A stretch of DNA of 64,000 bases, from the NCBI GenBank assembly GCA_963835965.1, contig CAWIHQ010000004.1:151921-215920 (forward strand), written 5' to 3'. Below are positions 25,109 to 58,773 of this stretch, piece by piece. The notes under the pieces are model-generated. The model did no database searches. It had not been told where the DNA came from and saw only the letters and a program-made list of their open reading frames with translations. A program made the translations under genes and the position numbers. Origin of the DNA: an uncultured Actinomycetes bacterium. Its GTDB lineage: Bacteria; Actinomycetota; Thermoleophilia; Gaiellales; Gaiellaceae. Within the stretch, counting starts at the first letter, position 1. Each line of letters opens with the position of its first letter.

Positions 25109-25309
25109 CTTCTGGAGATTACGTGACCAAAGGCGATTTCCTTGACGGTAGGTAGTTCAGCGGCTATTCTTGGAGGGAGCAGGGGGCGGTGCTGAGGTTG
25201 GGTTAGTGTGACGAGTGCTCGAAGGAAGGGGAGGCCCTGCTGGTGTACTGTCGTGTAGCGTGTCTCGACTCGATCTCCCGACTCCTCGACTCTCGATCTC
25301 CTCTCATCC

Positions 25310-25986
25310 GTGATCGGGAGGTGAAATCGACGGCCACGACATCTCCATGACCTTGTCGTGTCTCGCGGGTCGCCGCGTCCCCGCTTCGGGAACTCGCTCG
25401 GACGCCTGCGAGCGTCGGGTGGAACTCCGGAATACGGATCGCAGTAGATGCGCCCTGGCTCTCGTTCGTCCCGCGCTTATCGTCCCATTCGAGCTTGCGC
25501 CCCTCGTCCGCTTTCGCGTGCCGGTCGGCGAGACCTTCGGCGTCTGGAAGAGAGGGCTGAGCGGAACATCGCCTGCGTAGCGGGCGGCATTGAGGTAGAA
25601 GGCGATCGCCTTCCGCGCTGTGTCGCCCGCACCCCGTATTCGGCGAACACCTCCAACAGCTGTCCCGTGGTCGCGTTCTCCTTGCCAAGCTAGACGGCTT
25701 CGGGGTAGTGCTCGCGGAGGACGCGTGCCAGCACCGTCTGCCGCTCGGACTTCGAGCCATGACGAACTCATGCAAGATCGGGAGCGCGGCCCGTCCGCGT
25801 CGATGAAGCGAGCGAGCGCATTCCCGCGATGTACTGCGTCTGCGCCGCGCCCGACATTCCCAGGAGGAATGAGCGATCGATGCGCTTCGGGATGCCCTTC
25901 TCCTTCATCAGATCCGCCTGGTTCAGGAAGGTCTTGTACGCGAAGTACGGGGGCGCCTGCTTGGAACTATCCGTGGCTGTCTCCAT
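25310..25986 (-). pseudogene. DUF5343-like gene, disrupted by frameshifts and a stop
   Basis: Frame 1: METATDSSKQAPPYFAYKTFLNQADLMKEKGIPKRIDRSFLLGMSGAAQTQYIAGMRSLA. It continues in other frames (RQTVLARVLREHYPEAV*, ..ATTGQLLEVFAEYGV.., ..ARKAIAFYLNAARYAGDVPLSPLF). Family call is from memory. Confidence 0.5.
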
Positions 25987-26152
25987 CAGCCAACCTCCTG
26001 GTACGTGTGGATTGTCTCGCGTACCGTAGCCGGTACACCCGCGTGGCGCAAACACGGATGCCGGAGAAGTGCGGATTTCTTTGGCACGACCCGACTGTCT
26101 CGCGTAGCTTGGGAGCAGGAGGTGAGTGCAAATGCGCTTGGCTGAGCCAGGA

Positions 26153-26350
26153 ATGGCGGTGACGGTTCGCACGGCGGATGGAAAGGAACTCGCGCGTGTG
26201 GCTGTCAGCGGTGTGGTCGATGGGGCAGATTTCCCGTCGTCTGGGTCTGCTCGGAGGAGGAATGGGCCGCGGCGCACGGGAGCGGGAACGTTCCGACAGC
26301 GCTTCCGTGGCCTGCGGAGGATGTACGGCCGGCTGAGGAACAGGTGCCCG
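26153..26350 (+). pseudogene. Small hypothetical gene with a +1 frameshift
   Basis: MAVTVRTADGKELARVAVSGVVDGADFP then, one base out of frame, VVWVCSEEEWAAAHGSGNVPTALPWPAEDVRPAEEQVPA*. The second half is protein-like only in the shifted frame. Confidence 0.35.
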
Positions 26351-26459
26351 CGTGACCGAGAAGAAAGAGCCGGAGGAGAAGCCCTATGCGCGAGCGGACT
26401 TCATGCGCGATCTCGGAGAAGGCATCTAGGAAGCTAGAGCCGGAGAAGAAGGCGAAGAA

Positions 26460-27345
26460 GCGAACGCCCTTCCGGACGTTCCGGAGGAAGACCTTGAACA
26501 TCGGCACGCGATCGTGGCGGTGGCTGTACTTGAACGCGAACTCCTGCACGTAGAGTCCGAGCCACTTACGGGCTGACGTTGTGCTGGACGCCTGAGAGCC
26601 CACGCTTCACGTTGCCGAAGAACCCCTCGATCGTCTGCGTATGAACGTCGCCCTGCGCGTAGATCGATTCCGTGTGCTTGATCGTGTAGTGACGTGCGAA
26701 CTCCGCGCCAAGTCCCGCATATAGCGTGAACTCGTCCGTGTAGATCGTCGCGTCTGGGCTGACGTTGGCGCGGATTGCGGCGTGGAGCGTTTCGCGGCTC
26801 CGGTCCGGAACGACGATCGCGCGTGCCCGACCGCCGCGCTCGACCATTGCGAGATCGTCGGGCGACTCTGAATCTTCGCCATAGCGTCCTGCCGACGCCG
26901 TGTCGATGTTGCGGCGCGCGACGGTCCCCTGCTCGAATCTTCCCGCCCCACGCTGACTCGTCAATCTCGACCTCGCCGCGCAACGGCGTTGTGTCGTCGT
27001 CGAGTAGGAGGCGCCGGATCATGTTGAACATGCGCCATGCCGTCTTGTACGTCACGCCGATTTCGCGTTCGAGTTGCTTCGCGCTGATACCGCAGCGTGT
27101 CTGGCTCATGATGAAGATCGCGTGGAACCACACCGCAACGGCGTCGTGGACTTCTCGAAGATCGTCCCCGCTGTCGGATGGACATGGTGGCCGCACGAAT
27201 CGCATGAGACGAGTGCGGCCTTTACGCGATGGACCGGCGTGGTCTGCCGCACTTCGGACAATCGGCAGTGATCCGTCGACGCTGGGAGTTGCGCCAGAGG
27301 TATGAGGCAGGCGTCATCCGTCGGGAACGGTGGAAAGGTGAGCGT
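26460..27345 (-). mobile_element. IS1595-family (ISXO2-like) transposase gene remnant with at least 3 frameshifts
   Basis: The pieces lie in four frames. (1) Zn-ribbon/N-terminus ...FPTDDACL...CDSCGHHVHPTAGTIFEKSTTPL. (2) WFHAIFIMSQTRCGISAKQLEREIGVTYKTAWRMFNMIRRLL...GEVEIDESAWGG. (3) DDE core ...AIVVPDRSRETLHAAIRANVSPDATIYTDEFTLYAGLG..HYTIKH...YAQGDVHTQTIEGFFGNVKRGLSGV. (4) KWLGLYVQEFAFKYSHRHD. No inverted repeats identified. Confidence 0.7.
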
Positions 27346-27413: not shown

Positions 27414-28004
27414 TCAGCTGAACGGCTTCATCAGCATGTCGAAGACGACGACCATGAGCACGGCGACGTCGATGCGCGCGATGAGGAGAATTTCCTTGAT
27501 CGCGGCCTGCGTCTCTGCCGCGGCGGCGCCCTTCGTCTCGAGCAGGTTCGCGACCCGCTTCGCACGCGGGGAGAGGAAGGCGATGCCGGTCGTGAAGGTC
27601 ATCGCATAGCCGACGAGGCCGATGACCACCCAGGTCGTGCCGAAGCCGATGTGGTCGTTGATCACCATCGTGATCCCCATCGCCAGCACGACGAGACCGG
27701 CCGGCGCGAACAGCTTCTCGCCGACGAACGCCGCCTGGCGGGCGATGGTCGCGAGCTCCTCCGGGTCGTTCTTGTTCTGTGCCAGGAGCGCGAGCACGGT
27801 GAGCATGATCCCGCCGCCGACCCAGAAGACGGCGACGCCGACGTGGATCAGCTTGAACACGGCGAACCAGTGCGAGGGCGCGTCGGTCGTGTTCAGGGCG
27901 AAGATCAGGCCGACGGCGGCGACGGCCAGGCCGATTCCGACGGTGAGCGAGCGGGAAGCGCCGGTGTCGGTCCGCGGCGCCTCGGCGAGGGGAGTCGTAT
28001 CCAT
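27414..28004 (-). CDS. DUF2269-like integral membrane protein
   Basis: About 196 aa from ATG 28004 with 4-5 hydrophobic helices (HVGVAVFWVGGGIMLTVLALL, LVVLAMGITMVI, WVVIGLVGYAMTF, IDVAVLMVVVFDMLMKP). Confidence 0.6.
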   Translation of the reverse strand: MDTTPLAEAPRTDTGASRSLTVGIGLAVAAVGLIFALNTTDAPSHWFAVFKLIHVGVAVFWVGGGIMLTVLALLAQNKNDPEELATIARQAAFVGEKLFAPAGLVVLAMGITMVINDHIGFGTTWVVIGLVGYAMTFTTGIAFLSPRAKRVANLLETKGAAAAETQAAIKEILLIARIDVAVLMVVVFDMLMKPFS

Positions 28005-28033: not shown

Positions 28034-28495
28034 TTACAAGCTGCGCGCAGCCGCGATCAACTCGTCGACGTCGGGCAGCTCGCTCGGCTCGTAGGCCCAC
28101 GCGCAGCGGACGACGCCCTCCACGTCGACGAGGAACGCGCTGCGCCGCGAGACGTCGCGCATCCCGTTGTGCTCGTAGGCGACGCCGAAGCCGTGTGTCG
28201 CCTCGGCGTTCCAGTCGGACAGCAGCGGGAAGTCGAGGTCGAGCGCCTGCATCCAGGCGACGTGCGTGTACGGCGAGTCGCGCGAGATTGCGAACGGCTC
28301 GACCCCGGCGTCCTGCAGCTCCGCTCTCCTGTCACGCAGGAGCTCGAGCTCGCTCGTTCAGGTCGAGGACCAGTCGAAGAGATAGAAGAGGAGGAGCAAC
28401 GGCCGGTCGTGGAACAGATCGCCGATGCTCGCGCGCTCGCGCGGCGTCGTCCAGACGACCGCCTCGAGCGGCGCTTTCTCCCCGGCCTCGAGCAT
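28034..28495 (-). CDS. AhpE/BCP-like peroxiredoxin with in-frame TGA (codon 46, nt 28358-28360) at the peroxidatic-Cys position; candidate selenocysteine protein (alternative: nonsense pseudogene)
   Basis: Reading from ATG 28495 (AGGA 7 nt upstream): MLEAGEKAPLEAVVWTTPRERASIGDLFHDRPLLLLFYLFDWSST[TGA]TSELELLRDRRAELQDAGVEPFAISRDSPYTHVAWMQALDLDFPLLSDW...RRSAFLVDVEGVVR... This is the same frame as track ORF 28034..28252. It aligns residue by residue with the Prx motif FYPxDFT/SxxC(P/T)TE. Confidence 0.7.
28317..28350 (-). promoter_or_regulatory. Candidate bacterial SECIS hairpin downstream of the in-frame UGA
   Basis: mRNA sense: UGA-acgagcg-AGCUCGAGCUCCUG-CGUGA-CAGGAGAGCGGAGCU. Perfect 6-bp apical stem (CUCCUG/CAGGAG) with a 5-nt loop CGUGA starting 22 nt after the UGA. 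The lower stem is extendable with an internal loop and a bulge. Confidence 0.5.
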
Positions 28496-28504
28496 CCCTC
28501 GATC

Positions 28505-29791
28505 CTATGCGGCGGCGGCCGGCTCGGGCTTCGGTGAGACCTCCGTCGCCACGGCGATCTCCCTCGCCACCTCGACGATGTCGCCCCGGCCGCCGAAGGC
28601 GGGGTCTCTCGGCCGCGCGCCGGCGGCTTCGCCGCCGGCGCTTGCAGCCTTGAGCGTGTTGAAGACATGCAGCTGCCGGTCGGCGCCGTTGCCGCGGCGG
28701 AGGATCTCCTCGACGCCGGCGAGCTCTTCCTCCGAGCCGAGGTCGCGAGCGTGCGGGCGCAGCGTGTTCAGTGTCCGCCGCGCGAGCGCTGCGACCGGCA
28801 GCCGGTTGCGCCGCCCCGTGTGGAGGTCCATCACCGGCGCCGACAGGCCGTAGCGCGCGGCGAGCCACTTGTTCTCGGTCGTGAGAATGCGGTGGAAAGA
28901 CGGGATCTCCTCGCCGCGCTCCACCAGCTCTGCGTAGTGCTTGACGAGCGCCTGGCAGTAGGCCGTGATGGCGATCGCGTCCTCGAGTCGTGTCACCGCG
29001 TCGCAGATGCGGATCTCGACCGTGCCGAGACGCGGGTGGAGGCGGATGTCCCACCAGATGTGCGTGTAGTCCTGGATGCACCCGGTCTTCTCGAGTTGGT
29101 TCACGACTTGCGCGTAGTCGGCGTAGTCGCGGAAGCGAGGCGGCGGGCCGGAACGCGGGAAGGCGGCGAAGATCATGTGGCGCGACGAGCGGAGCCCGGT
29201 CGGCTCACCGCGCCAGAACGGAGAGCTGGCCGACAGCGCCACGAGCTCCGGGAGATGGGCGATCAGCCCGTTGACGACCTGGATCGCCTTCTCCGCGTCG
29301 TCGACTGCGACGTGGACGTGCATCCCGAAGATCAGCTCGCGCCGCGCGATGTACTGCATCTGGTCGACGAGCGCGCGATAGCGGTCTTTGGCCGTGATCC
29401 GCTGCGCCTCGAAGAGCGAGAACGGATGCGTGCCGGCCGAGCCGACGCGCAGGCCCTTCTCGCGCGCGACATCGGTGACGTAGCGGCGGATGCGCAGCAG
29501 TTGCTGCTGCACCCCGGCGGGCGTATGGCAGACCGGCGTTGCCACCTCGAGCACCGACTGCATCAGCTCCGGGTTGATCCGCGGCTCCAGCTCGTGGCCG
29601 GCGACGGCAGCGAGAACGGTGTCGATGTGCTGGACGAGGTCGAACGTCTCGCTGTCGAGGAGCATGTACTCCTCCTCGACGCCGAGCGTGTACGGGTCGC
29701 TCGCGCCGAAGGCGTGATCGAGCACGCTGCCGCCGGGCGGGAAGTGCGAGCCCTTCCCCGTGATCGAGGGCGGGATCAGCGAGTCGCTCAT
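28505..29791 (-). CDS. Carboxylate-amine ligase, YbdK/GCS2 family (glutamate-cysteine ligase 2-like)
   Basis: TLGVEEEYMLLD, GTHPF, RELIFGMHVHV, SSPFWRG..TGL.S.R, WWDIRLHPRLGTVEIRICD. Its stop is 9 nt upstream of the peroxiredoxin ATG. Confidence 0.85.
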   Translation of the reverse strand: MSDSLIPPSITGKGSHFPPGGSVLDHAFGASDPYTLGVEEEYMLLDSETFDLVQHIDTVLAAVAGHELEPRINPELMQSVLEVATPVCHTPAGVQQQLLRIRRYVTDVAREKGLRVGSAGTHPFSLFEAQRITAKDRYRALVDQMQYIARRELIFGMHVHVAVDDAEKAIQVVNGLIAHLPELVALSASSPFWRGEPTGLRSSRHMIFAAFPRSGPPPRFRDYADYAQVVNQLEKTGCIQDYTHIWWDIRLHPRLGTVEIRICDAVTRLEDAIAITAYCQALVKHYAELVERGEEIPSFHRILTTENKWLAARYGLSAPVMDLHTGRRNRLPVAALARRTLNTLRPHARDLGSEEELAGVEEILRRGNGADRQLHVFNTLKAASAGGEAAGARPRDPAFGGRGDIVEVAREIAVATEVSPKPEPAAAA

Positions 29792-31868: not shown

Positions 31869-32180
31869 TCAGCTTTCGAAGCCGAGCTGGCGCTCGAGCA
31901 TGCCCTTCGGCATCGCGCCGACGGCGGAGGCCTTCGGGGCACCGCCCTCGAAGAGCATCATGTTCGGGATCGACTGGATCCCGTAGCGCATCGCGAGATC
32001 CTGGTTGTCGTCGATGTTCACCTTGACGAGCTTGAGGCCGCGCTCGTCGGCGATCCGCTCGAGGACCGGTGCGACCGCGTGACACGGCCCGCACCACTCG
32101 GCCCAGAAGTCCACGAGCACGGGCTTGTCGGCCTGCAGGACCTCGGTCTCGAATGTGGAGTCGGTTACGTCGTTTGTCAT
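31869..32180 (-). CDS. trxA: Thioredoxin
   Basis: 103 aa. VLVDFWAEWCGPCHAVAP...VNIDDN...YGIQSIPNMMLF. GAAGGA RBS. Confidence 0.92.
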   Translation of the reverse strand: MTNDVTDSTFETEVLQADKPVLVDFWAEWCGPCHAVAPVLERIADERGLKLVKVNIDDNQDLAMRYGIQSIPNMMLFEGGAPKASAVGAMPKGMLERQLGFES

Positions 32181-40710: not shown

Positions 40711-40739
40711 CGGCGAAGCAGCCGTAGACTGCGTCTCGT

Positions 40740-40814
40740 CGGGGCGTAGCTCAGCCTGGTCAGAGCGCCCGGTTTGGGGCCGGGAGGCCGGCAGTTCGAA
40801 TCTGCCCGCCCCGA
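40740..40814 (+). tRNA. tRNA-Pro (anticodon TGG)
   Basis: CGGGGCG/CGCCCCG acceptor stem, GCTCAGCCTGGTCAGAGC D-arm, anticodon loop TTTGGGG, GGCAG-TTCGAAT-CTGCC T-arm. CCA not encoded. Confidence 0.9.
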
Positions 40815-40852
40815 TTCCGCGCCGGGATCGCGGCCGCTTCCGTTCAGACCCC

Positions 40853-41305
40853 ATGCGGGCATCCGAACAGCGGGGCAGCGTGCAGCCGGAGCGGGACGAG
40901 CCGCGGCTCCACGACCCGGGGCTCGGCGATCTCTCCTTCCGTGACTGGCAGGCGATCTTCGTCGGCGCCCTCAAGGGTTCCTCGAGGACAACGGGACGAT
41001 GCTCGCCTCGGCGCTGGCGTACTCGACGTTCTTTGCGATCCTCGCCGTCCTCCTCGTCGTGGTCGGCGTCTTCACACTCCTCGTCGGCCCGCAGACGATC
41101 TCGGTCGGGCGCCTTCGCCTTCTACACGTCGAACTTCGGCTCGTACAACAAGGCGTGGGGCTCCCTCGCCGCTGTGATCATCATGCTCATGTGGCTCTGG
41201 CTCGCCGCGATCGCGCTGCTCCTCGGTGCCGACGTCAATGCCGACGCCGAGCGGAGCCGGAAGCTGCGCGAAGGCCGGCTGCTGGTGGCGACGCGCTCGG
41301 GTTGA
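40853..41305 (+). pseudogene. YihY/BrkB-family membrane protein relic (internal deletion plus two frameshifts)
   Basis: The N-terminal block ..FLEDNGTMLASALAYSTFFAILAVLLVVVGVF.. is readable only in frame +2 (40975-41105). The C-terminal block FYTSNFGSYNKAWGSLAAVIIMLMWLWLAAIALLLGADVNA is in frame +1. About 150 aa of the family's middle are absent. The 3' end overlaps the convergent ctaG. Confidence 0.55.
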
Positions 41306-42011
41306 AGTGCCCCCCCGCCTGCTCGTCGGCGAGGAAGCGAAGTAGATAGGCCGCGAAGGCTCCGAAGAAGACGAGCGCCTCCTCGGCCGCCATCGTCACG
41401 CCGGCGATCTGCTGATCGGCGAGCGGGCCGGGCCCCCAGGTGCGCGGCGCGTGGACGTAGAACGGATAGATCGCGCGAGGGATGAGCGCGAGCAGCAGGC
41501 CGAGCGGCGACGCGAGCACGAACGCAGCGAAGAGGTAGGCGGCCTTCGCTCCCGCCGACGCTTTCCCGTGCACGACCGGCCACCAGACGCAGATGCCCGC
41601 GGCGAGATAGGTCAGGTGCTCGACGTGGAGGAGCGAGTGCGGGCGGCGGAGCGCCGCGTCGTAGATCCAGGGCAGGTGCCACGTGTAGTAGGTGACCAGC
41701 CAGAGCGGAAGCGCGACGAACGGCCGGAAGAGCGGGAAACCGGCCGCCCGCCCGGCGAGTCGCGGCGGGACCGCGAGCACGAGCAGCGCGGGAGCCCACT
41801 CCGCGAGAACGACGTTCTGCAGGAGGTGCGCCCAGAGGAACGTGTGGTTCGCGAGCGGCTCGAGCTGCGTGACGAAGGCGGCGAAGACGAGGCCGACGCC
41901 GAGGGCTCCGGCGACGAGGCGCGGGCGCGGGATGGGGCCGCCGCGGTAAGCGAGTGCCAGTCCGACCGCGAGCACCGGCGCGAGCCCGATCGCCTCCGCC
42001 GAGGGATGCAT
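41235..42011 (-). CDS. ctaG: Cytochrome c oxidase assembly factor CtaG (Caa3_CtaG family) membrane protein
   Basis: 258 aa, polytopic. HLLQNVVLAEWAPALLVLA, YYTWHLPWIYDAAL, HSLLHVEHLTYLAAG..W. Family call is from memory. Confidence 0.7.
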   Translation of the reverse strand: MHPSAEAIGLAPVLAVGLALAYRGGPIPRPRLVAGALGVGLVFAAFVTQLEPLANHTFLWAHLLQNVVLAEWAPALLVLAVPPRLAGRAAGFPLFRPFVALPLWLVTYYTWHLPWIYDAALRRPHSLLHVEHLTYLAAGICVWWPVVHGKASAGAKAAYLFAAFVLASPLGLLLALIPRAIYPFYVHAPRTWGPGPLADQQIAGVTMAAEEALVFFGAFAAYLLRFLADEQAGGHFNPSASPPAAGLRAASGSARRRH

Positions 42012-42034
42012 CTCGCTACCGTACCCAGCGCCTC

Positions 42035-42105
42035 GCGGGTGTAGCTCAATGGTAGAGCCCTAGCCTTCCAAGCTAGTTACGCGGGTTCGACTCCCGCCAC
42101 CCGCT
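42035..42105 (+). tRNA. tRNA-Gly (anticodon TCC)
   Basis: GCGGGTG/CACCCGC acceptor stem, GCTCAATGGTAGAGC D-arm, anticodon loop CTTCCAA, GCGGGTTCGACTCCCGC T-arm. Confidence 0.9.
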
Positions 42106-42400
42106 TCTTCTTCTTCCCGCATGGTTGGCCGGAAACCCGCTACTGGAGCGGGCTTCCGCGTCTCAGGGTCTCCTCAGCGTTTGCCGCTTGAAACCACTCG
42201 AACCCGCCCGATACTTGCACGCAACGGGCGCGCACCCTTGAAGAGGTGGGACAGTTCCGGGGGCAAGCCAGCACGAGCCGGAGGGCGTAGCGAGGTCGAG
42301 CACGCAGACCGTGCGCGGCAAGCGCGGGTCGAGCGAGCGGAGGTCCGTGCGGACAGGCCGCATCCGCCCGAGGCTGCTCGCGGCGCCGCAGTTCTGAGGC

Positions 42401-43186
42401 TTAGAGTTGTGGCGCCGCGAGGGCGGACGACCGGACCGACCGGTGCATGCCCGCGGACGGCGTCCAGAAATGGTGCTGAGAACCGAACCGGAAGCCGTGG
42501 TGCGGCATCTTCTGCGACCCGGCAGGCAGCGTGCGGTTCACGAGGCTCGTGTAGAAGGTCTGCATCTTGCTGAGAATCGCCTTCTCCTGAGCAGAGCTGA
42601 GATGCTTTGCGGTGACCGCCTCGTCGAGCCTGGTCTTCGTGGCGGCCATGAGCGCGGCGACGACGCCGTCGGCGGTCTTGCCGTGCGCCTTCGCGATCTG
42701 AGCGGGGCTCTTGCCGGATGCGAGAGCGCTCTGCAGCTGTGCCTGCGTGATCCCGAGGTAGGAGGCGACGGTCTTGAGGCCCGTCCCGAGCATCCCGCCG
42801 GCGAGGCCTGCGCCGAACATGCCTCCCCGATGCCCGAACCCGAAGCCGTGACCGCCGACGCCAAAGCCGTGACCGCCGAAGCCAAAGCCGTAGCCGAGCC
42901 CGCCGACGAGCGGCATCTGCCCCTTGTCGATCCGTGCCTTGAGCTCATTGGCTTGCTGCTTCGTGAGCCGGCCGGCCTTGACAGCGGCGTCGATCTGGTC
43001 ATCGAGCGCCTGCCTGAGCGCCGAGGAGAGCGCGCCCGGGGTTACATGTAGACGGCCCGCCGCATCGTTGATGATCGCCTTGCTCTGTTCACTCGGTGAC
43101 TCGAGTTTCGTTGCGGCGACAGCGCTCCCGGCGACGACGACGGCAAGCGCGATGACGCCCATCATGACCCAATAACGACGGCGCAT
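42401..43186 (-). CDS. Secreted hypothetical protein with a Gly-rich (H)GFG repeat core
   Basis: Signal-like N-terminus MRRRYWVMMGVIALAVVVAGSAVAA. Central GGLGYGFGFGGHGFGVGGHGFGFGHRGGMFGAGLAGGMLG flanked by helical regions. Confidence 0.6.
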   Translation of the reverse strand: MRRRYWVMMGVIALAVVVAGSAVAATKLESPSEQSKAIINDAAGRLHVTPGALSSALRQALDDQIDAAVKAGRLTKQQANELKARIDKGQMPLVGGLGYGFGFGGHGFGVGGHGFGFGHRGGMFGAGLAGGMLGTGLKTVASYLGITQAQLQSALASGKSPAQIAKAHGKTADGVVAALMAATKTRLDEAVTAKHLSSAQEKAILSKMQTFYTSLVNRTLPAGSQKMPHHGFRFGSQHHFWTPSAGMHRSVRSSALAAPQL

Positions 43187-43299
43187 TTGCTCCCCTTTCG
43201 TGCTAATCGTGGCACACCGGAGGGGTGCAATCCATGCCCGTCAGGATTCTTACCGAAATCTCACGCTTGGATCCGAGATGACGACGGCCGACCGTCGCG

Positions 43300-43614
43300 C
43301 TACTCGCCGCCGGCCTCTCCGTCGGCTACTCCAGTCGAGGCGGTCGAGAGACTCCTTGCCAGGGTGTCGTGACTGCCGCCGGTGATGCGGCGGTAGTCGG
43401 GGTGATGGTGGCGGCAGACAGGGTGGCCGTGCTCGGGGTGCGGGTGCCAGGCGAGGCGCCAGCACCGGTTGACGTGGCAGTTGCGCTGGCGGATCCAGAT
43501 GACGAAGGCGGTAAGTAGAGTCAGCTCACCGACGTCCGAGCCGATGCCGGACCAGAACTGATAGCCACGGCCCGAGAGAACGTGCTCGAAGTAGGTCTGG
43601 AACCAGCCCGGCAA
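43300..43614 (-). CDS. Small hypothetical membrane protein with a Cys/His-rich segment
   Basis: MPGWFQTYFEHVLSGRGYQFWSGIGSDVGELTLLTAFVIWIRQRNCHVNRCWRLAWHPHPEHGHPVCRHHHPD... Confidence 0.5.
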   Translation of the reverse strand: MPGWFQTYFEHVLSGRGYQFWSGIGSDVGELTLLTAFVIWIRQRNCHVNRCWRLAWHPHPEHGHPVCRHHHPDYRRITGGSHDTLARSLSTASTGVADGEAGGE

Positions 43615-43697
43615 CTCGCGCCGAGTCTAGGCCCGTCGGCGGACGAATCGACCGGCGCTGAAATCCCGCCACAGCGCCGTGCTCATGGCGGGGCACG

Positions 43698-44693
43698 CTA
43701 CTGCGGCGGGCCGCTGATCGGCGTGATCGTGCCGGTCTGGGCGGTTCCGCTCGTATCCGTCCAGCCGATCGAGACGGCCTTGCCGGGCACGAGCGAGAGG
43801 ACGACCCTGAGGACGTCCGCCCTCGACGAGATCGTGGCCCCGTTGAGCGAGGTGATGACGTCTCCCTTGACGAGTCCCGCGAGGTCGGCCGGCTTTCCCG
43901 ACACGACCGACACGATCTTGGCGCTGCTCGAGACATCCTGGAGCAGCACGCCGAGGAACGCCGTCGGCCCGACGTGGACGATGGCGCTCGATTTGCCGTT
44001 CTCGATCTGGCGCGCGAGCCGGAGCGCCTGCGTGAGCGGGATCGCGAAGCCGCGGTGGACGCCGGAGGTCGAGCCGGCGGTCACGATGCCGAGGACGCGG
44101 TTCTGGCTGTTCTCGAGCGGCCCGCCCGAATAGCCGGGCACCACGGGCGCGTCGGTGGCGATCAGGTTGTTCAGCGTCTCGGGGTCGCCGCTGTCTCCCG
44201 TCGCGATGATCTGCTGGTGGAGGGCGATGATCCGGCCCCGCGCCGTCTTCGGCGGGCCGCCGCGGCCCTGTGCGTTCCCGCGGGCGACGACACGCATCAT
44301 GACGTGTAGGGGGATGGCGCCACCTCGCCTGACCGTCCCCAGGCCCGAGGCGTTCGCCAGCTGCAGCACCGCGATGTCTCGCGAGACGGAGTAGCCGACG
44401 ACGGTGGCGGTGTACTTGGTGTGCGTCGTGACGTCGACGACCTTGAACTTCGTCGCTCCCGCGATCACGTGGTTGTTCGTCAGGACCTCTCCCGAGCGCG
44501 AAATGATCATCCCGGTCCCGGCGGCGAGTCCGTGCTCGTAGCCGAGCGTCGTGTAGATGTCGACGATGCCGACGTTCGGGGCGGCTCTCACGGTGTGCGT
44601 CGAGTGCCCGGTGGCGCCGGCCGGAGAGGCGGCTACGGCCGGCGCCAGCGTCGCCAGGACGGCGAGCAGGAGGCGTCGCGTCAGTCCGGGCAC
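43698..44693 (-). CDS. Trypsin-like serine protease with C-terminal PDZ domain (HtrA/S1C family)
   Basis: Signal peptide. Triad contexts TNNHVI, DIAVLQL, PGYSGGPL. PDZ-like GKPADLAGLVKGDVITSLNG. Confidence 0.85.
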   Translation of the reverse strand: MPGLTRRLLLAVLATLAPAVAASPAGATGHSTHTVRAAPNVGIVDIYTTLGYEHGLAAGTGMIISRSGEVLTNNHVIAGATKFKVVDVTTHTKYTATVVGYSVSRDIAVLQLANASGLGTVRRGGAIPLHVMMRVVARGNAQGRGGPPKTARGRIIALHQQIIATGDSGDPETLNNLIATDAPVVPGYSGGPLENSQNRVLGIVTAGSTSGVHRGFAIPLTQALRLARQIENGKSSAIVHVGPTAFLGVLLQDVSSSAKIVSVVSGKPADLAGLVKGDVITSLNGATISSRADVLRVVLSLVPGKAVSIGWTDTSGTAQTGTITPISGPPQ

Positions 44694-44820
44694 GAGAGCA
44701 TCAGAGCAGGAGTCGATGAGCCATGTCTAAGCGATCTGAAAGCCGCATGTAAGCGTCGGTTCGGCCATTTTGCAGCAGATCTTTAACCCGACCGGTACGG
44801 GCCGCCGCTCCTGGCTGCGG

Positions 44821-45273
44821 TTAGAGATCGATCCGCTCTATGACGACGGATTCGCGCGGGCGGTCCGCGGAGTCCGTGTCCACCGCCGAGATCGTGTCGA
44901 CCACGTCCATGCCGCCGGTGACGCGGCCGAACACGGTGTGCTTGCCGTCGAGCCACGGGCACGCGTCCGCGGTCACGATGAAGAACTGGCTCCCGTTCGT
45001 GTTCGGGCCTGCATTTGCCATCGCCAGCGCGCCGCGCACGACCGGGTGGTCGTTGAACTCGTCCTCGAAGGTGTAGCCGGGGCCGCCCGATCCCGTTCCT
45101 TCCGGGTCGCCGCCCTGGATCATGAAGTCTGGGATGATCCGGTGGAAGATGACGCCGTCGTAGAATCCGTCCTCGGCGAGCTTGCGGAAGTTCTCCACCG
45201 TCTTCGGCGCCTCGCCTTCGAACAGCTCGAGAGCGATGGGTCCGTGGTTCGTGTGCAGGGTGGCGGCGGTCAC
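44821..45273 (-). CDS. Cyclophilin-type peptidyl-prolyl cis-trans isomerase
   Basis: [36 protein letters not shown]...[19 protein letters not shown]...LDGKHTVFG. Confidence 0.92.
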
Positions 45274-45575
45274 TGCGGCGGAACGCTATCGGCTAGCGGC
45301 TCGAGCGCGCCGGCGGTAGGTTCGAGCGATCCGTCGCCGAGTCCCGCGACGGCTTCGCGCAGGAGTGCCCGGGCGGCATCGACGTCGTCGGCGGAGAGGA
45401 CGGTCGCGACTCCGGCGAGGTGCTCACCCCGGCCCTCGTCCCAGAGCTCGATCAGGACCGTGTCCAGGTCGCGGCGCGGAGTGTAGGAGTCCTCGGCCAC
45501 GCCGACCCGAACCGCCACGACACGCCCGTCCGGCAGCGCCACCTCCTGCTCGAGCGAAACGCTTCGGAGGGACAT
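45270..45575 (-). CDS. Hypothetical protein (101 aa), translationally coupled to the PPIase gene
   Basis: [26 protein letters not shown]... Its stop overlaps the PPIase GTG (GTGA). Confidence 0.45.
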
Positions 45576-45661
45576 CGTTGTGCCATTCCGCCGGAGGTGG
45601 GTCGGGTTGAAACCAGTGCAGGAGTAGGACCACTGCTGCGCGAACTTGCGCCGAACGGCCC

Positions 45662-46234
45662 ATGGCGGTTCTTCCCGACAACCGCAACCGTGTCCGCGTG
45701 AGCGGCAGCAGAGCACTCCGGTTCTCCCTCGCCCTCGCGGTGCTGGTCGCGACCGCGTTCCTCGCCGATTCGGCGTTCGCGACGAGTCGCTCGGAGAGGA
45801 ACCTCCCGACGCTGAACCATCAGGTGCTCATCGCGGTGAATCGGTTCCGCGCAGCGCACGGCCTCGTAGCGCTGCGCGAGTCGGCGGCTCTCGACAGGTC
45901 GGCGCGCCGGCACTCGCTCGAGATGGGCCGGCGGGGCTACTTCGGTCACTCCTCGGCCGACGGGACCGTGTTCTGGCGGCGCATCCAGCACTACTACCCC
46001 GCGACCAACTTCTCCTACTGGTCGGTCGGCGAGAACCTCATCTGGCAGTCGCAGAGCCTGGGCGCTGCTGCCGCGATGCAACTGTGGATCGCGAGTCCTC
46101 CGCATCTGGCGAATCTGCTGTCTCGCCAGTGGCGCCAGATAGGGGTCTCAGCCGTCGGTGTCCCCCGGGCTCCGGGCGTCTACGGCGGGAGGCACGTGAT
46201 CATCATCACCACCGACTTCGGCGTCCGCCGCTAG
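45662..46234 (+). CDS. CAP/SCP/PR1-like domain secreted protein
   Basis: Signal/TM segment, then VNRFRAAHGL..L..S..L..SA..HS..M...GYFGH.S.DG........VGENL...SP.H..NLL....R.IGV. Confidence 0.75.
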   Translation: MAVLPDNRNRVRVSGSRALRFSLALAVLVATAFLADSAFATSRSERNLPTLNHQVLIAVNRFRAAHGLVALRESAALDRSARRHSLEMGRRGYFGHSSADGTVFWRRIQHYYPATNFSYWSVGENLIWQSQSLGAAAAMQLWIASPPHLANLLSRQWRQIGVSAVGVPRAPGVYGGRHVIIITTDFGVRR

Positions 46235-47263
46235 CGAGCCCGGGCCCTCGGGCGCTCGGCGTCGCAGGTGGTAGAGCCCTATCGCCGCGGGGCCGAGCGG
46301 CAGCCAGAGGTTGAAGACGCGGTACGCGAAGACAGCGAGGACGGCAGCGGGCAGGCTATAGCCGACCCAGACGAGCGCGAACGGTAGGAGTGCCTCGACG
46401 GCGCCCGCGCCCGCGAGCGGGAGCGTCCGCCGCGTCAGGGCGTACCCGGTCGCGTAGCCGACCACGACCGCCGCCACCGAGGGCGTGACCTGATCGAAGG
46501 CGGCGAGACAGACCCAGAGGACGAACACCTCGCCGGCCCAGTACAAGGCCATCCCGCTGAACGCGGCAGCACCGTGCCGGCGCGGCTCCGCGAGGATCCT
46601 CCCGACGACCGCGATCGCCTCGAGCGCCGGCCGCAGCATTCTGCCGATGCGTGCGCGGTAGATCACCTCTCGGTAGCGGACGGCGAGCAGTGCGAGCGCT
46701 GTGCCCGCGGGGACGCCGATCGTCCAAGAGAGCGTCACGGCCCGCTGCGCAGGCCAGTGGTTCAGGAGCAGGAGGATCGAACAGATGCACGCGCCCGCTG
46801 CGAGAACGGCGTACTCGAGCGAACCGAGACCGAGCACTCGGACCCGTGCTTCGTCCTGCGGGACGCCGAGGTCCTGAAGGGCCTCGAGATCCACCGCGAA
46901 CCCGCCGCGCGGGAAGAACATGCCGAACCCCGCGGCGACGATCGCGGCCGCCCGCAGGCGTCCGAGCCGGACCTCACGTCCTATGTTCGCGACCTCTCGG
47001 TAGGCCACCGTGTAACCGACGTGGGCGGCGACGGCTCCGGCGATCGCGAACGGGAACCAGTAGGTGTCCGCGTGTTTGAGGTGCGACGCGACGGCGGCGT
47101 AACCCGCGGCCCCGGCCACGAAGATCGTCGCGATCAGCGAGAGCGCGCCCGCGAGGAGCATCAGCATCACGACGTGGTGCGGCTCGTGCTCGCGGTGATG
47201 CGCGAACAGCACCCCGAGAGGGCTGCCGCGCCGCCGAGCGCGCCGAGCAGGCAACCGCGTCAC
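46148..47263 (-). CDS. Polytopic membrane protein, lysylphosphatidylglycerol-synthase TM-region/UPF0104-like
   Basis: 371 aa with about 8 hydrophobic helices. Family call is tentative. The 3' end overlaps the convergent CAP gene. Confidence 0.55.
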   Translation of the reverse strand: MTRLPARRARRRGSPLGVLFAHHREHEPHHVVMLMLLAGALSLIATIFVAGAAGYAAVASHLKHADTYWFPFAIAGAVAAHVGYTVAYREVANIGREVRLGRLRAAAIVAAGFGMFFPRGGFAVDLEALQDLGVPQDEARVRVLGLGSLEYAVLAAGACICSILLLLNHWPAQRAVTLSWTIGVPAGTALALLAVRYREVIYRARIGRMLRPALEAIAVVGRILAEPRRHGAAAFSGMALYWAGEVFVLWVCLAAFDQVTPSVAAVVVGYATGYALTRRTLPLAGAGAVEALLPFALVWVGYSLPAAVLAVFAYRVFNLWLPLGPAAIGLYHLRRRAPEGPGSLAADAEVGGDDDHVPPAVDARSPGDTDG

Positions 47264-47285
47264 CGGCCCGATGATCCCGGTCGGG

Positions 47286-47746
47286 CTATGACGCCGACCG
47301 AGCGGCGGCGACGGCTTCCAGTCGGGAATCGACGCCGAGCACCTCGACCTGGCGGGGGGTGAGATGCGCGGGCGGCGCGGTGGAACTGTCGCCCGGCTGT
47401 TCCTCGATCAGGCCGAGGATGCCGACCACACCCTCGCCGTTCATGAGCGGCGCCCAGCTGAGCTCGACGGCCACCCGTGTGTGCCGGCGGTCGAGACCAG
47501 GACGCCGGTCGAGTCTGTGGCCGGGGCGGCGGCGATCACCTTCTGGGCGAACAGCTCGCGGGCGCGCCGGCTGTCCTCGGGCGAGACGACCGATTTGTAG
47601 TGGCGACCGCGAATGTCCCCGAGCAGCCGCTCGGCCGCAGGATTGTTCCAGCGGACGTCTCCCGTCGTGTCGAGCACGTAGCTCGGGACGCCGACGTGGT
47701 CCAGAGCCCCCTCGACGTCGCCGCCGACTGTCAGGCCGGTGGCCAT
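47286..47746 (-). pseudogene. PAS-domain/LuxR-type regulator fragment, frameshifted and lacking its HTH
   Basis: MATGLTVGGDVEGALDHVGVPSYVLDTTGDVRWNNPAAERLLG... continues after a 1-nt shift near 47476-47481 (acacac) as (R)VAVELSWAPLMNGEGVVGILGLIEE...HLTPRQVEVL. It then stops where a LuxR HTH should continue. Confidence 0.5.
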
Positions 47747-47826
47747 CACGGAAGTGTGGCTGATCCGGCCCGACGATGACGCGTCCTTCACCACGTCCGC
47801 GAGTCTCCAGTCAGGTGAACTCCGAG

Positions 47827-47899
47827 TGCGCCCGGGAGGATTCGAACCTCCGACCCGCGGATTAGAAGTCCGCCGCTCTGTCCACTGAGCTACGGGCGC
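47827..47899 (-). tRNA. tRNA-Arg (anticodon TCT)
   Basis: Reverse complement: GCGCCCG-TA-GCTCAGTGGACAGAGC-G-GCGGA-CTTCTAA-TCCGC-...-GGAGGTTCGAATCCTCC-CGGGCGC-A. Confidence 0.9.
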
Positions 47900-47932
47900 G
47901 TGCGCAAAGGGTAGACCGCTAGATTGCCGCCG

Positions 47933-49492
47933 ATGGCGGACGCGCTCGAGCAGCTCAAGGAACGGCTGGCCGAGGTCATGGACCTCGGCAAGATCGCGCG
48001 CCTCCTCTCCTGGGATCAGCAGACGATGATGCCGCCCGCCGGCACCGCACACCGCGCCGACCAGTCCGCGACGCTGCTCCGCCTGATGCACGAGCGGTTC
48101 ACCGATCCCGAGGTCGGCCGGATGCTGGAGGAGTTGCGCCCGCTCGAGGACTCGCTCGATCCGGATTCCGACGACGCCGCGCTGATTGCGCTCGTGCGCC
48201 GCGACTACGAGAAGGCGGTGAACGTGCCGGCGTCGCTGCGGGCGGCGATGGCCCACGCCGCCGCCGAGGCCCGGCCCGTCTGGGTGAAGGCGAAGGCGGA
48301 GTCGGACTTCGCCTCCTTCCTGCCGTCGCTCGAGCGGATCGTCGAGCTGAAGCTCGAGTACGTCGACTGCGTCGCGGACGGACCTGGAAGCGTCGTCGGC
48401 GAAGCCGACGACGCCCGGCAGGAAGACCACGCCGCCTCCGGCGGCGCTGGGGCGGCCGAGCGGTACGACGTGCTGCTCGACGACTACGAGCCGCAGACGA
48501 CGACCGCGGAGGTCAGGACGCTGTTCGAGGAGCTGAAGCAGCCGCTGGTCGAGCTGATCAGCGAGCTGCGGGAGCGGGAGGTGGACACCTCGTTCCTGCA
48601 CGGCGACTTTCCGCCCGACCGCCAGCGCGACCTCGCCTACGAGGTGACCGAGCTCTTCGGCCACCGGCCCGACAGCTGGCGGATCGACCCGACCGAGCAC
48701 CCGTTCGCGTCAGGCGCCGGCCGCGACGACGTCCGGATCACGACGAACTACCACCCGGACTCGCTCGAGTCGCTCTTCTCGACGATGCACGAGTACGGCC
48801 ACGGCCTCTACAGCCACCAGCAACCGCAGCACCTCGAGCGGCTGCCGACCGGCGGTCCCTGCTCGCTCGGGATCCACGAGTCGCAGAGCCGGCTCTGGGA
48901 GAACCTCGTCGGCCGCAGCCGTCCGTTCTGGCAGCTCTTCTATCCGCGTCTCCAAGAGACGTACCCCGAGCAGTTCGGAGACGTCGACCTCGAGCGCTTC
49001 CACGCCGGCATCAACGCCGTCACGCCCAGCCTGATCCGCATCCAGGCCGACGAGGTGACGTACGGAATGCACGTCATGCTGCGCTTCGAGCTCGAGCAGG
49101 ACATGGTCGAGGGCCGCGTCGAGCTGCGCGACCTGCCGCAGCGCTGGAACGAGAAGATGTGGGATTACCTGGGCGTCGAGGTGCCCGACGACGGGCACGG
49201 CGTGCTCCAGGACGTCCACTGGTCCGGCGGGTCGATCGGCTACTTCTCCACCTACTTGATCGGGACGGTCGCCTCGGTGCAGATCTGGGAGGCCGCAATG
49301 CGCGACCTGCCCGACCTCGAGGAGCAGGTCGGCCGCGGCGAGTTCGCGCCGCTGCGCGAGTGGCTCGGCGAGCACATCCATGTGTTCGGCCGCAAGTTCT
49401 CGCCGCAGGAGACGCTACGGCGTGCAACCGGCTCCGCGATCGCGGCCCAGCCGTATCTGGACTATCTCCGCCGCACGTACGCGGCGTCGTAG
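47933..49492 (+). CDS. Carboxypeptidase Taq-type metallopeptidase (M32 family)
   Basis: HEYGHGLY (HExxH), DVRITT, GIHESQSRLWEN, IRIQADEVTY, VHWS.G..GYF.TY. ATG 47933 (TTG 47924 is an alternative). Confidence 0.9.
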   Translation: MADALEQLKERLAEVMDLGKIARLLSWDQQTMMPPAGTAHRADQSATLLRLMHERFTDPEVGRMLEELRPLEDSLDPDSDDAALIALVRRDYEKAVNVPASLRAAMAHAAAEARPVWVKAKAESDFASFLPSLERIVELKLEYVDCVADGPGSVVGEADDARQEDHAASGGAGAAERYDVLLDDYEPQTTTAEVRTLFEELKQPLVELISELREREVDTSFLHGDFPPDRQRDLAYEVTELFGHRPDSWRIDPTEHPFASGAGRDDVRITTNYHPDSLESLFSTMHEYGHGLYSHQQPQHLERLPTGGPCSLGIHESQSRLWENLVGRSRPFWQLFYPRLQETYPEQFGDVDLERFHAGINAVTPSLIRIQADEVTYGMHVMLRFELEQDMVEGRVELRDLPQRWNEKMWDYLGVEVPDDGHGVLQDVHWSGGSIGYFSTYLIGTVASVQIWEAAMRDLPDLEEQVGRGEFAPLREWLGEHIHVFGRKFSPQETLRRATGSAIAAQPYLDYLRRTYAAS

Positions 49493-49601
49493 CCTCATCT
49501 CTTGCAGAGCTTCGATCGCGAAGGTCTTCGGGCGCAACGGGGCCGCGCCGCCGCCTCGTTGTCGAACTCCCTCTGGTCGGCCAGGGCGGCTAGCGTGGAA
49601 C

Positions 49602-50162
49602 GTGTCGCCTGATTGGCCTGTCGAGACGAACCGGCTGATGTTGCGGCCGTTCGTCGCCGCGGATTTCGAGGCGATGTACGCGATGCGGTCGGATGCCGAG
49701 GTCGCCCGCTACCTCTACCAAGAGCCGTTGTCACCTGAAGAGACACGAGACCTCCTGACCCGGAAGATGGCGGCGACCGCTTGGGCGAGTGAGGGTGACT
49801 GGCTCGGCGCCGCGGTCGTCGAGCGAGCATCCCTACTCGCCGTCGGGGATGTGGGGCTCCATTGGGTGAGCGAGCGGGACCGGACCGCGGAGATCGGCTT
49901 CACGTTCGACCCGCGCTGCCAGGGGAAGGGGTTCGCCACCGAGGCCGCACGCGCGCTGGTCGACTGGGCGTTCTCCGCGGCGGGCATCCACCGGGTCATC
50001 GGCCGCACGGAGGCTCGCAACACCGCATCGGCTCGAGTGCTCGAGAAGCTCGGGATGCGGCGCGAGGCCCACTTGGTCGAGAACGAGTGGGTAAAGGGTG
50101 AGTGGCAGAGCGAGCTCATCTACGCGGTTCTCGACCGTGAGTGGCCTTCCCGCTCCGCGTAG
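49602..50162 (+). CDS. GNAT-family N-acetyltransferase (RimJ/RimL-like)
   Basis: ETNRLMLRPF...D.E.....R.D.EV.RY, EIGFTFDPRCQGKGFATEAARALVDWAF, RVIGRTEARNTASARVLEKLGMRREA. GTG 49602 chosen. Confidence 0.8.
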   Translation: MSPDWPVETNRLMLRPFVAADFEAMYAMRSDAEVARYLYQEPLSPEETRDLLTRKMAATAWASEGDWLGAAVVERASLLAVGDVGLHWVSERDRTAEIGFTFDPRCQGKGFATEAARALVDWAFSAAGIHRVIGRTEARNTASARVLEKLGMRREAHLVENEWVKGEWQSELIYAVLDREWPSRSA

Positions 50163-50280
50163 AGTCTGGTGGAGGCTCGGGGAACGTGTGGATGCCCGCG
50201 CCCCCGGGGGTGTCCACCACTTGACTCGGTTCGCGTTGCTGTGCATGGTCTTGTCACTACCCAACAACCAAGGAGTAACT

Positions 50281-50673
50281 GTGCTAGCTGCCTACTCGTT
50301 CGGCGACGTCATGTGGACGATGCTCGTGTTCTTCTGCTGGATTCTGTTCTTCTGGCTGCTCTTCGGCGTCTTCGGCGACCTGTTCGGCCGGCACGACATC
50401 AGCGGCTGGGGGAAGGCGGGCTGGACGATCTTGGTGATCATCCTTCCGTTCCTCGGAATCTTCATCTACCTCATCACTCAGGGAAAGAGCATGGGCGAGC
50501 GGGCGCAGCAGAGGGCGCAGGCTCAGCAGTCCCAGATGGACACCTACGTGCGGTCGGTCGCGTCGTCCGGCTCCGCCACGGATGAGATCGCCAAGGGCAA
50601 GGAACTCTTGGCGTCCGGCGCGATCACGCAGGCGGAGTACGACCAGCTCAAAGCCAAAGCGCTCACGACGTAG
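50281..50673 (+). CDS. Small membrane protein with PLD-nuclease-N-like TM region and C-terminal SHOCT domain
   Basis: AAGGAG RBS. WTILVIILPFLGIFIYLI. C-terminal ELLASGAITQAEYDQLKAKAL (SHOCT pattern). Confidence 0.75.
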   Translation: MLAAYSFGDVMWTMLVFFCWILFFWLLFGVFGDLFGRHDISGWGKAGWTILVIILPFLGIFIYLITQGKSMGERAQQRAQAQQSQMDTYVRSVASSGSATDEIAKGKELLASGAITQAEYDQLKAKALTT

Positions 50674-50999
50674 CCTTGGCCTCCCGCGACGGGGGTCCTC
50701 GCCCGGGCGAGTGTCCGGAGAGGACCCCTGACGCGTTGGGTCGTAAGACCTTTCAGGCGGTCGCAAGTCCCGGAGCACGCGTCGCATATCTGAGCGATGC
50801 TTCCGCCAGAGGAGATCCGCCCTGCCCTTCTGATCCGCGGACTCTCCGCTTGCACAACCTCGCCGAGGATGGCGGCCGGGAAGCCGCCGACGATCCAGAG
50901 CCAGACGAAGAGCGCCGCCATCTGCCGAGACTTCTCTCTCAGCGCCTCCGTGCGGCCGCCACAAATCTCAACCCGTTCGAAACGGGCGCTTCGGGCAAG

Positions 51000-51073
51000 G
51001 GTGGCGGACGGGACTCGAACCCGCGGCCACCGGGACCACAACCCGGAGCTCTACCAACTGAGCTACCGCCACC
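51000..51073 (-). tRNA. tRNA-His (anticodon GTG) with encoded G-1
   Basis: Reverse complement: G-GTGGCGG-TA-GCTCAGTTGGTAGAGC-T-CCGGG-TTGTGGT-CCCGG-...-GCGGGTTCGAGTCCCGT-CCGCCAC-C. G-1:C73 pair. Confidence 0.9.
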
Positions 51074-51123
51074 GAGCCGGCACAGCGTAGCGAGGAACCA
51101 GGCGAGATACCCTCTTTGCGCTC

Positions 51124-51195
51124 GGCCCCGTAGCTCAGCGGACAGAGCGGCAGCCTTCGAAGCTGCGTGCGGAGGTTCGATTCCTCCCGGGGCCG
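51124..51195 (+). tRNA. tRNA-Arg (anticodon TCG)
   Basis: GGCCCCG-TA-GCTCAGCGGACAGAGC-G-GCAGC-CTTCGAA-GCTGC-...-GGAGGTTCGATTCCTCC-CGGGGCC-G. Confidence 0.85.
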
Positions 51196-51346
51196 TAAAA
51201 CCATCGATTTGCAGGAATTTTCAGCTTGGAGAGGGGCCACGAAGCGTCACAGACTCCGCCGGGACGTCACGAGTCGTCGAATGCGTGGGTACCCCGGTGG
51301 TGCCCCGTCCGCTAGCTGTCCGCGGGCTGATCGCTGGAGTGGCGCG

Positions 51347-56649: not shown

Positions 56650-56742
56650 GCGACTGAACAGAACGGCGTCCTCGCCCGCGACAAGGTCGGTCTTACGCTC
56701 GGCGCTCGGGACTCCGTTCGAGCGGTCGCACGTAGGAGAGGC

Positions 56743-57924: not shown

Positions 57925-57953
57925 ATCTCGGGCGCCAGCCTCGCGGCTGGCCG

Positions 57954-58724: not shown

Positions 58725-58773
58725 GCCGCGAAGGCGTGTCACTTCGAACTTCCGGACGGACTGGCTGAGAACT

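Follow-up and report, generated by a model that had tools for sequence, protein, structure and literature searches.

The DNA analysed here is a 64,000-nt stretch of a contig from an uncultured bacterium of the family Gaiellaceae (hereafter the window), and our subject is a peroxiredoxin gene on its minus strand, at 28034..28495, that contains an in-frame TGA. An initial annotation, made from the letters of the window, had proposed that this TGA stands exactly at the codon of the peroxidatic cysteine (Cys), where it would encode selenocysteine (Sec, or U). Read on the minus strand, the frame opens with the ATG that begins at 28495, runs through 45 sense codons to the TGA at 28358-28360 and then through 107 sense codons to a TAA at 28034-28036. 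The TGA is the sole interruption, and with codon 46 read as Sec the gene has 153 codons plus TAA and would encode a 1-Cys(Sec) peroxiredoxin of the AhpC/TSA type. The putative Sec codon occupies the peroxidatic position of the motif S43-S-T-U46, within the peptide FYLFDWSST[TGA]TSELELLRDRR, and the segment RRSAFLVD lies farther downstream. The start and ribosome-binding site span 28493..28506 on the same strand: the ATG (28493-28495) is preceded by an AGGA/GAGGG region, with AGGA 7 nt before it, and lies 9 nt past the TAG of the upstream GCS2/ybdK gene. The orthologs described below share an N-terminus of the form M/V-L-E-x-G. On re-reading, all sequence statements of the initial annotation held, namely the 45 codons, the position of the TGA, the AGGA, the spacing to the ybdK stop and the RRSAFLVD segment.

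We compared the conceptual protein, with Cys put at codon 46, with known peroxiredoxins. Residues 21-130, which span the TGA, match the Pfam domain AhpC-TSA (PF00578) with E = 7.6e-22 and 78 bits against a cut-off of 26, and in the PDB the best sequence matches, with E = 3e-18 to 2e-12, fall among the BCP/PrxQ and AhpE peroxiredoxins. In the alignment with Aeropyrum pernix (A. pernix) BCP (2cx3), residue 46 falls on the peroxidatic Cys (FSPVCTKEL), and R118, within RRSAF, on the conserved catalytic Arg (AKRAVF). The T/S-x-x-C motif is present as S43-S44-T45-U46. There is no conserved second Cys, since C131, the sole other one, is Gly in two orthologs (L001 and L002), and residue U+5 is Glu, so that the peroxiredoxin has no CxxxxC motif. 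By these comparisons the predicted enzyme is a peroxiredoxin of the 1-Cys type, closest to the BCP/PrxQ and AhpE enzymes. With the structures of that group (2cx3; Sulfolobus Bcp, 3hjp and 2ywn; M. tuberculosis AhpE, 1xxu and 1xvw) it shares the aligned peroxidatic residue and Arg and a similar length (153-164 residues against 153 here). They differ from it in carrying Cys rather than Sec and in keeping the Pro of the active-site motif; their identity to the window protein is low, and it may belong to either the BCP or the AhpE subfamily.

A six-frame scan of the window, in which sequence was called coding-like if its GC content at third codon positions (GC3) exceeded 0.8 over at least 30 codons on each side of the TGA, returned this TGA as the only one in 64 kb flanked in frame, before and after, by such sequence. 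Across about 1.5 Mb of DNA flanking related loci, the only in-frame TGA that recurs is that of the peroxiredoxin (81 loci); the remaining 31 cases are unconserved singletons or doubletons. No further selenoproteins were found near the peroxiredoxin or near selA, the other in-frame TGAs there being adjacent-gene junctions or unconserved noise. A TGA placed as in the peroxiredoxin is thus not a common chance arrangement. The same data bear on a genome-wide reassignment of UGA to sense, as in genetic codes 4 or 25, under which the codon would need no special explanation. Some gene calls from the Joint Genome Institute (JGI) do translate the peroxiredoxin TGA as Trp, as reassignment would have it. 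In the window, however, TGA terminates 20 of the 45 coding-like open reading frames (ORFs), including the Pfam-verified thioredoxin, IleRS, DUF2269 and ArsR genes, and it occurs only once within coding sequence. Because TGA serves there as an ordinary stop, we conclude that there is no genome-wide reassignment, and we give this explanation a negligible probability.

We next consider the orthologs, a set of 82 loci drawn from 80 species-representative genomes and two other contigs. The 80 genomes are metagenome-assembled genomes (MAGs) labelled Gaiellaceae, Gaiellales, Thermoleophilia or Actinomycetota, and past the TGA the loci are 68-94% identical in amino acids. The aligned codon is TGA in 81 of the 82 and TGC in one (L065), and never TAA or TAG. 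Upstream of the TGA the frame is open and conserved in the orthologs (VWTTPRE...LLLFYLFDWSST). The ratio of nonsynonymous to synonymous change (dN/dS, pooled Nei-Gojobori) is 0.35 over 33 codons before the TGA and 0.25 over 60 codons after it, which indicates that the protein sequence is maintained on either side of the TGA. No extra stops were found in the peroxiredoxin genes of the 82 loci. One locus in a long-read MAG (L057, 10001-10460) has a 1-nt shift in the peroxiredoxin N-terminus, its match measuring 460 nt instead of 459, which is probably an assembly error or indel. In another (around 10100-10150 of L042) five residues are inserted ahead of the LLLFYLFDW motif.

These results also speak to the possibility that the gene is a pseudogene, or that its Cys codon (TGC or TGT) became TGA by a recent nonsense mutation or through faulty sequencing or assembly. 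A single base separates TGC from TGA, and the window taken by itself could not exclude such an event. The same TGA, however, recurs in 81 genomes that belong to different species and were assembled independently, in short-read as well as long-read projects; selection is purifying before and after the TGA, and there are no disruptions apart from the probable indel in L057. The chance of such a mutation or error is in our view close to nil, in line with the initial annotation, which had called a random nonsense mutation at exactly this codon much less likely than UGA-encoded Sec. It had also expected orthologs with a Cys codon and conservation on both sides of the TGA, and the TGC of L065, the Cys of 62 more distant homologs and the dN/dS values of 0.35 and 0.25 bear this out.

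The distant homologs come from a protein search, in which full-length matches were 55-75% identical to the window protein, while the closest relatives (80-96%) were all shortened gene calls of 94-104 residues; NCBI names one of these 'redoxin domain-containing protein [Gaiellaceae bacterium]'. Among 68 full-length database homologs the residue at the site is Cys in 62 and 'W' in six, the latter all JGI gene calls (P0001, P0007, P0011, P0012, P0039 and P0062). The only one of the six checked at the DNA level, P0001 (locus L083, 20-553), has TGA at the 'W' site, and its 'W' is therefore the product of a gene caller reading TGA as Trp. Calls of this kind create spurious Trp-containing peroxiredoxin entries in protein databases. 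The shortened annotations probably arise because no NCBIfam model reaches its cut-off for the window peroxiredoxin.

The gene calls in relatives, a 45-residue ORF followed by one of 94-104 residues, are also what would be expected if the gene were split, that is, if the TGA were a true stop and a 45-residue peptide were made alongside a separately initiated C-terminal protein, the two perhaps assembling without a catalytic residue. Such a second protein would need a start, and no start codon after the TGA is conserved among the orthologs. Codon +4 is Leu in 86% of sequences (CTC in 59, CTG in nine, TTG in two) and ATG or a Val codon in the others, Met at +36 is found in just 81%, and the gene callers choose CTG, TTG, GTG or ATG at differing positions. 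A true stop would moreover be expected to drift among TGA, TAA and TAG, yet all 81 are TGA; it would cut a single thioredoxin-fold domain precisely at its catalytic residue; and a Cys-form ortholog is uninterrupted. We consider a split gene very improbable.

Just downstream of the TGA, the mRNA can form a hairpin that we regard as a putative bacterial SECIS (selenocysteine insertion sequence). Its core, at 28326..28342 on the minus strand, comprises 17 nt (CUCCUG-CGUGA-CAGGAG): a 6-bp stem pairs CUCCUG (28337-28342) with CAGGAG (28326-28331) around the apical loop CGUGA (28332-28336). The stem starts 15 nt and the loop 21 nt after the UGA. Bacterial SECIS elements have, by consensus, a distance of 16-37 nt from UGA to loop and a G-U in the apical loop. 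Like the E. coli fdhF SECIS and the bSECISearch consensus, the hairpin lies within the coding sequence 3' of the UGA, has G-U in its loop and keeps its distance (21 nt) in range; it differs in showing no sequence similarity and in having a short stem (6-7 bp) with a 5-nt loop and no bulged U that we could identify.

The hairpin is strongly conserved. The RNAalifold consensus of the 82 sequences is the same 6-bp stem with a 5-nt loop, and 100% of the cells of the core are paired; three pairs vary, in each case by a transition that only turns a Watson-Crick pair into G.U. The loop CGUGA is invariant among the TGA forms. Synonymous sites are frozen over codons +5 to +11 (GAG CTC CTG CGT GAC AGG AGA; 28325..28345, minus strand), where the proportion of synonymous differences (pS) among 80 TGA forms is 0.006, about 50-fold lower than the 0.307 of the rest of the gene. 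Of 81 sliding windows, the one at these codons gives the minimum pS, and all eight with the lowest values are immediately 3' of the UGA. The Arg codons kept in the hairpin are rare ones: CGT, AGG and AGA make up 7.6%, 4.5% and 1.8% of the Arg codons in window ORFs, and among the orthologs they occur in 80/81, 79/79 and 55/55 cases, respectively. A possible lower stem with weak support, AGCUC (28346-28350) with GAGCU (28317-28321), would extend the structure to 28317..28350 (minus strand). It is paired in 91% of cells, two of its pairs are broken in 13-19 of 79 distinct sequences, and it lies outside the RNAalifold consensus; given the broken pairs, we downgraded it and do not treat it as a firm part of the hairpin.

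Orthologs that carry Cys provide a natural experiment on this element. We read three Cys forms at the DNA level (L065, L084 and L085/L087), all of them syntenic and all with TGC at the site. The Cys-form orthologs (L065, L084, L085; P0003, P0004, P0009) occupy the same slot between the GCS2 and DUF2269 genes, have the same length, are 65-73% identical to the window protein and share an identical active-site context, FYLFDWSxT[C/U]T. All three forms that were read at the DNA level have CGC for CGT, so that the loop becomes CGCGA instead of CGUGA and loses its U; L065 has four substitutions in the 17-nt core, and the stem is changed in L065 and L084. In two of the three, the amino acids of the hairpin stretch are identical to those of some Sec forms. 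TGC and an altered loop occur in the same genes, and the hairpin has thus relaxed where the TGA was lost. The conserved hairpin that the initial annotation had expected after the TGA is thus present, with frozen synonymous sites and rare codons, and is degraded in the Cys forms. Support for its role as a candidate SECIS comes from this conservation and from the Cys-form experiment.

The Cys forms also suggest an evolutionary history. In a neighbour-joining tree, built from a short protein and without support values, the distant Cys forms are basal and several Cys forms fall inside the TGA clade. Such a tree is consistent with a single gain of Sec and repeated later reversions to Cys. Reversion from Sec would explain why most of the stem and the rare codon AGG survive in the Cys forms, which look like Sec-to-Cys revertants with a decaying SECIS. 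The locus thus offers a natural series of Sec/Cys exchange, with 81 Sec forms that have a frozen putative SECIS and several Cys forms that have a decaying one, and the series may help in studying the origin and decay of SECIS elements within coding sequence.

The initial annotation had asked for a search for the Sec-decoding genes beyond the window. As a probe we used E. coli SelA, identical to PDB 8uzw, and its motif SGDKLLGGPQAG, which is common to the Aquifex enzyme. The motif was back-translated with G/C at wobble positions and scanned against a metagenome collection, from which 120 loci were listed. Among these 120, one SelA clade (72-83% mutual identity) comprises the loci nearest to Gaiellaceae DNA in tetranucleotide composition. 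On these Gaiellaceae-like contigs selA is accompanied by selB, whose product has the SelB-specific beta-barrel and winged-helix domains, and by a tRNA-Sec (anticodon TCA) that scores above the gathering threshold of Rfam RF01852. A profile search with the clade found five proteins entered at NCBI as 'L-seryl-tRNA(Sec) selenium transferase [Gaiellaceae bacterium]', and in two MAGs labelled Gaiellaceae by NCBI (DASREW010000021.1 and DASXQY010000098.1) selA, selB and tRNA-Sec stand in a row. The family to which the TGA peroxiredoxin belongs therefore has the core decoding machinery; its presence in these MAGs agrees with the Sec proposal, which none of the refuting conditions listed in the initial annotation, as far as they could be examined here, has overturned. 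Two further features of the selA contigs may be recorded. An O-methyltransferase gene (Dimerisation and Methyltransf_2 domains) lies between selA and selB and overlaps both by a few bases in L209 (11296-12246) and L210 (3458-4408); it is truncated in L208 (11296-11811) and absent in L212 and L214. An RNase P class A RNA (Rfam RF00010, 208.8 bits) is found at 1139-1468 of L212, a contig labelled Gaiellaceae by NCBI, about 8.5 kb upstream of selA.

On these grounds we consider it very likely, with a probability of roughly 0.88, that 28034-28495 is one intact gene for a 153-residue peroxiredoxin whose peroxidatic Sec is encoded by UGA at codon 46, a reading drawn from sequence comparison. Several results weigh against it. 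At the active site, the Pro of the motif PxxxT/SxxC is replaced by Leu39 (28379-28381, codon 39, minus strand). FYLFDWSxT[U/C] is found throughout the Gaiellaceae clade, in Sec and Cys forms, and in Cys homologs farther away the segment reads FYPFDWS. With a domain score so far above the cut-off, this deviation does not exclude membership in the peroxiredoxins. The initial annotation had aligned the segment position for position with the family motif; the TGA does fall on the peroxidatic Cys of 2cx3, and the match fails at the canonical Pro.

A second group of adverse results concerns the hairpin. The core helix has no compensatory double substitutions and its covariation is not significant, as 59-167 of 500 shuffles reach the observed values; the helix hardly varies, and we claim no covariation for it. 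The folding energy of the 76 nt after the UGA is ordinary for their composition (z = -1.2), and the signal therefore lies in the 17-nt core and not in overall stability. Rfam has no matching family for the hairpin region and gave only chance microRNA matches. The ELELLRDR motif is conserved in Cys forms too, so that the conservation is partly at the protein level; the synonymous-site analysis controls for that.

The third group concerns the machinery. Neither sel genes nor tRNA-Sec were found in the 64-kb window or in the 10 kb on either side of the 82 loci by ARAGORN, Rfam, tblastn with E. coli SelA and SelD, or Pfam applied to 20 ORFs, which for the window agrees with the initial annotation. 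The five tRNA genes of the window, at 40739-51196, are Pro-TGG, Gly-TCC, Arg-TCT, His-GTG and Arg-TCG, none of them tRNA-Sec. The four NCBI assemblies identified with this SelA clade (DASREW, DASXQY, JBKPQP and WNGO) are absent from the 82 records that contain the peroxiredoxin, to which two ENA MAG contigs could not be mapped, and no assembly was found to hold both the machinery and the TGA peroxiredoxin. No SelD was detected in the window or in the Gaiellaceae-clade loci examined, those around selA included. The SelD probe does find selD beside selA or tRNA-Sec in other high-GC lineages (L156, 3396-4337; L123, L186, L170, L175, L105 and L168).

The failure to find SelD, or machinery and peroxiredoxin in the same genome, together with the lack of covariation that would tie the hairpin to SelB binding, would also suit a readthrough of the UGA that does not involve Sec. 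A near-cognate or dedicated tRNA would then insert Trp, Cys or Arg, and the hairpin would only slow termination; a Cys tRNA that depends on SelB would be one variant. The sole natural replacement of the TGA is TGC, however, and the distant homologs have Cys, so the site needs a Cys-like nucleophile and not Trp or Arg. Nor would readthrough with Cys explain why 81 species retain a costly UGA that a single mutation could turn into TGC. The family encodes SelA, which converts Ser-tRNA(Sec) to Sec-tRNA(Sec), as well as SelB and a canonical tRNA-Sec. We know of no precedent for conserved bacterial readthrough of this kind at a catalytic Cys, and we regard this alternative as improbable, though less so than a split gene.

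If UGA does encode Sec here, the gene would be expressed as follows. The hairpin (CUCCUG/CAGGAG, loop CGUGA) would act as a bacterial SECIS and be bound by SelB, which would bring Sec-tRNA(Sec) to the ribosome, so that Sec is inserted and translation does not terminate. The selenol of the protein would then attack peroxides as the peroxidatic Cys does in ordinary peroxiredoxins. Since no resolving Cys is conserved, the oxidised enzyme would need an external reductant, which might be the thioredoxin encoded nearby or a low-molecular-weight thiol that the GCS2-family ligase would produce.

Peroxiredoxins with T/SxxU are an established family of bacterial selenoproteins, with 12 proteins in one survey (PMC1794560) and 91 proteins from 78 organisms in another (PMC5029168), as the initial annotation had stated in general terms. 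The hosts in these surveys are Deltaproteobacteria, Clostridia and Symbiobacterium (PMC1794560; PMC5029168). The window protein resembles this 'Prx' family in its AhpC/TSA fold, in UGA standing for the peroxidatic Cys within T/S-x-x-U, in the existence of Cys orthologs and in the stem-loop after the UGA, and its pattern of Cys and Sec exchange matches that of the surveys (PMC1794560; PMC5029168); the host lineage differs, and the active-site Pro is Leu in the Gaiellaceae clade. The only peroxiredoxin-selenoprotein equivalog to match in an NCBIfam scan was PrxU (NF040737), with 44.6 bits against a cut-off of 270. PrxU, a thioredoxin-dependent Sec-peroxiredoxin, belongs to the same superfamily but is longer (its model has 233 positions), and the window protein is not a PrxU ortholog.

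In the literature we found no report of Sec use in Gaiellales, Thermoleophilia or Gaiella. BSepDB catalogues 57,630 bacterial selenoproteins, and the text describing it names no Gaiellaceae-type lineage (PMC13326102); the database itself may already list such peroxiredoxins. What we describe is a familiar kind of selenoprotein in a lineage for which we found no report of Sec use; no new mechanism is involved, and knowledge of how selenoproteins work is unchanged by it. Maintenance of the Sec trait has been attributed mostly to FdhA or SelD (PMC1794560). It is conceivable, but we think unlikely, that in the Gaiellaceae the peroxiredoxin is a main reason for keeping the trait and that the nested Cys forms represent repeated recent losses of Sec; linked to this suggestion is that SelD is absent from the neighbourhood or from the genomes and that selenium is activated by another route.

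If the Sec reading holds, it would extend selenocysteine use to the Gaiellaceae. This is an abundant, mostly uncultured, aerobic, high-GC soil lineage, and selenium availability may affect its peroxide defence. In NCBI and JGI the protein is entered with 'W' at the catalytic position or as pieces of 94-104 residues. Since the pieces have no catalytic residue, antioxidant capacity and selenium dependence are under-called; this annotation error will persist until a curated model is added.

The peroxiredoxin gene lies between two genes of the same strand. Upstream, a gene of the GCS2 family (glutamate-cysteine ligase family 2, YbdK-like; 28505..29791, minus strand; Pfam GCS2, 2e-61) is probably co-transcribed with it. 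Downstream is a DUF2269 membrane-protein gene (27414..28004, minus strand; Pfam DUF2269, 7.5e-13), whose likely start is the ATG at 28002-28004. The order GCS2, peroxiredoxin, DUF2269 is kept in Sec-form and Cys-form loci, the last gene corresponding to a neighbour of 195 residues in L001 and L002. A thioredoxin gene (31869..32180, minus strand; Pfam Thioredoxin, 3.4e-28) lies about 3.4 kb from the peroxiredoxin, and this neighbour is conserved in L001, L002, L084 and L085.

Two other parts of the window drew our attention. Between the DUF2269 gene and a gene for an ArsR-type helix-turn-helix protein, three minus-strand ORFs (190, 169 and 259 residues) without a Pfam match occupy 25203-27205. 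The DUF2269 and ArsR-type genes are adjacent in L001 and L002, and the GC content is 0.64-0.65 over 22-28 kb and about 0.70 elsewhere; the segment may be an insertion. At 55642-61630, where the GC content is slightly lower (0.65-0.67), four ORFs of 335, 393, 439 and 420 residues have no Pfam match at E <= 1e-5.

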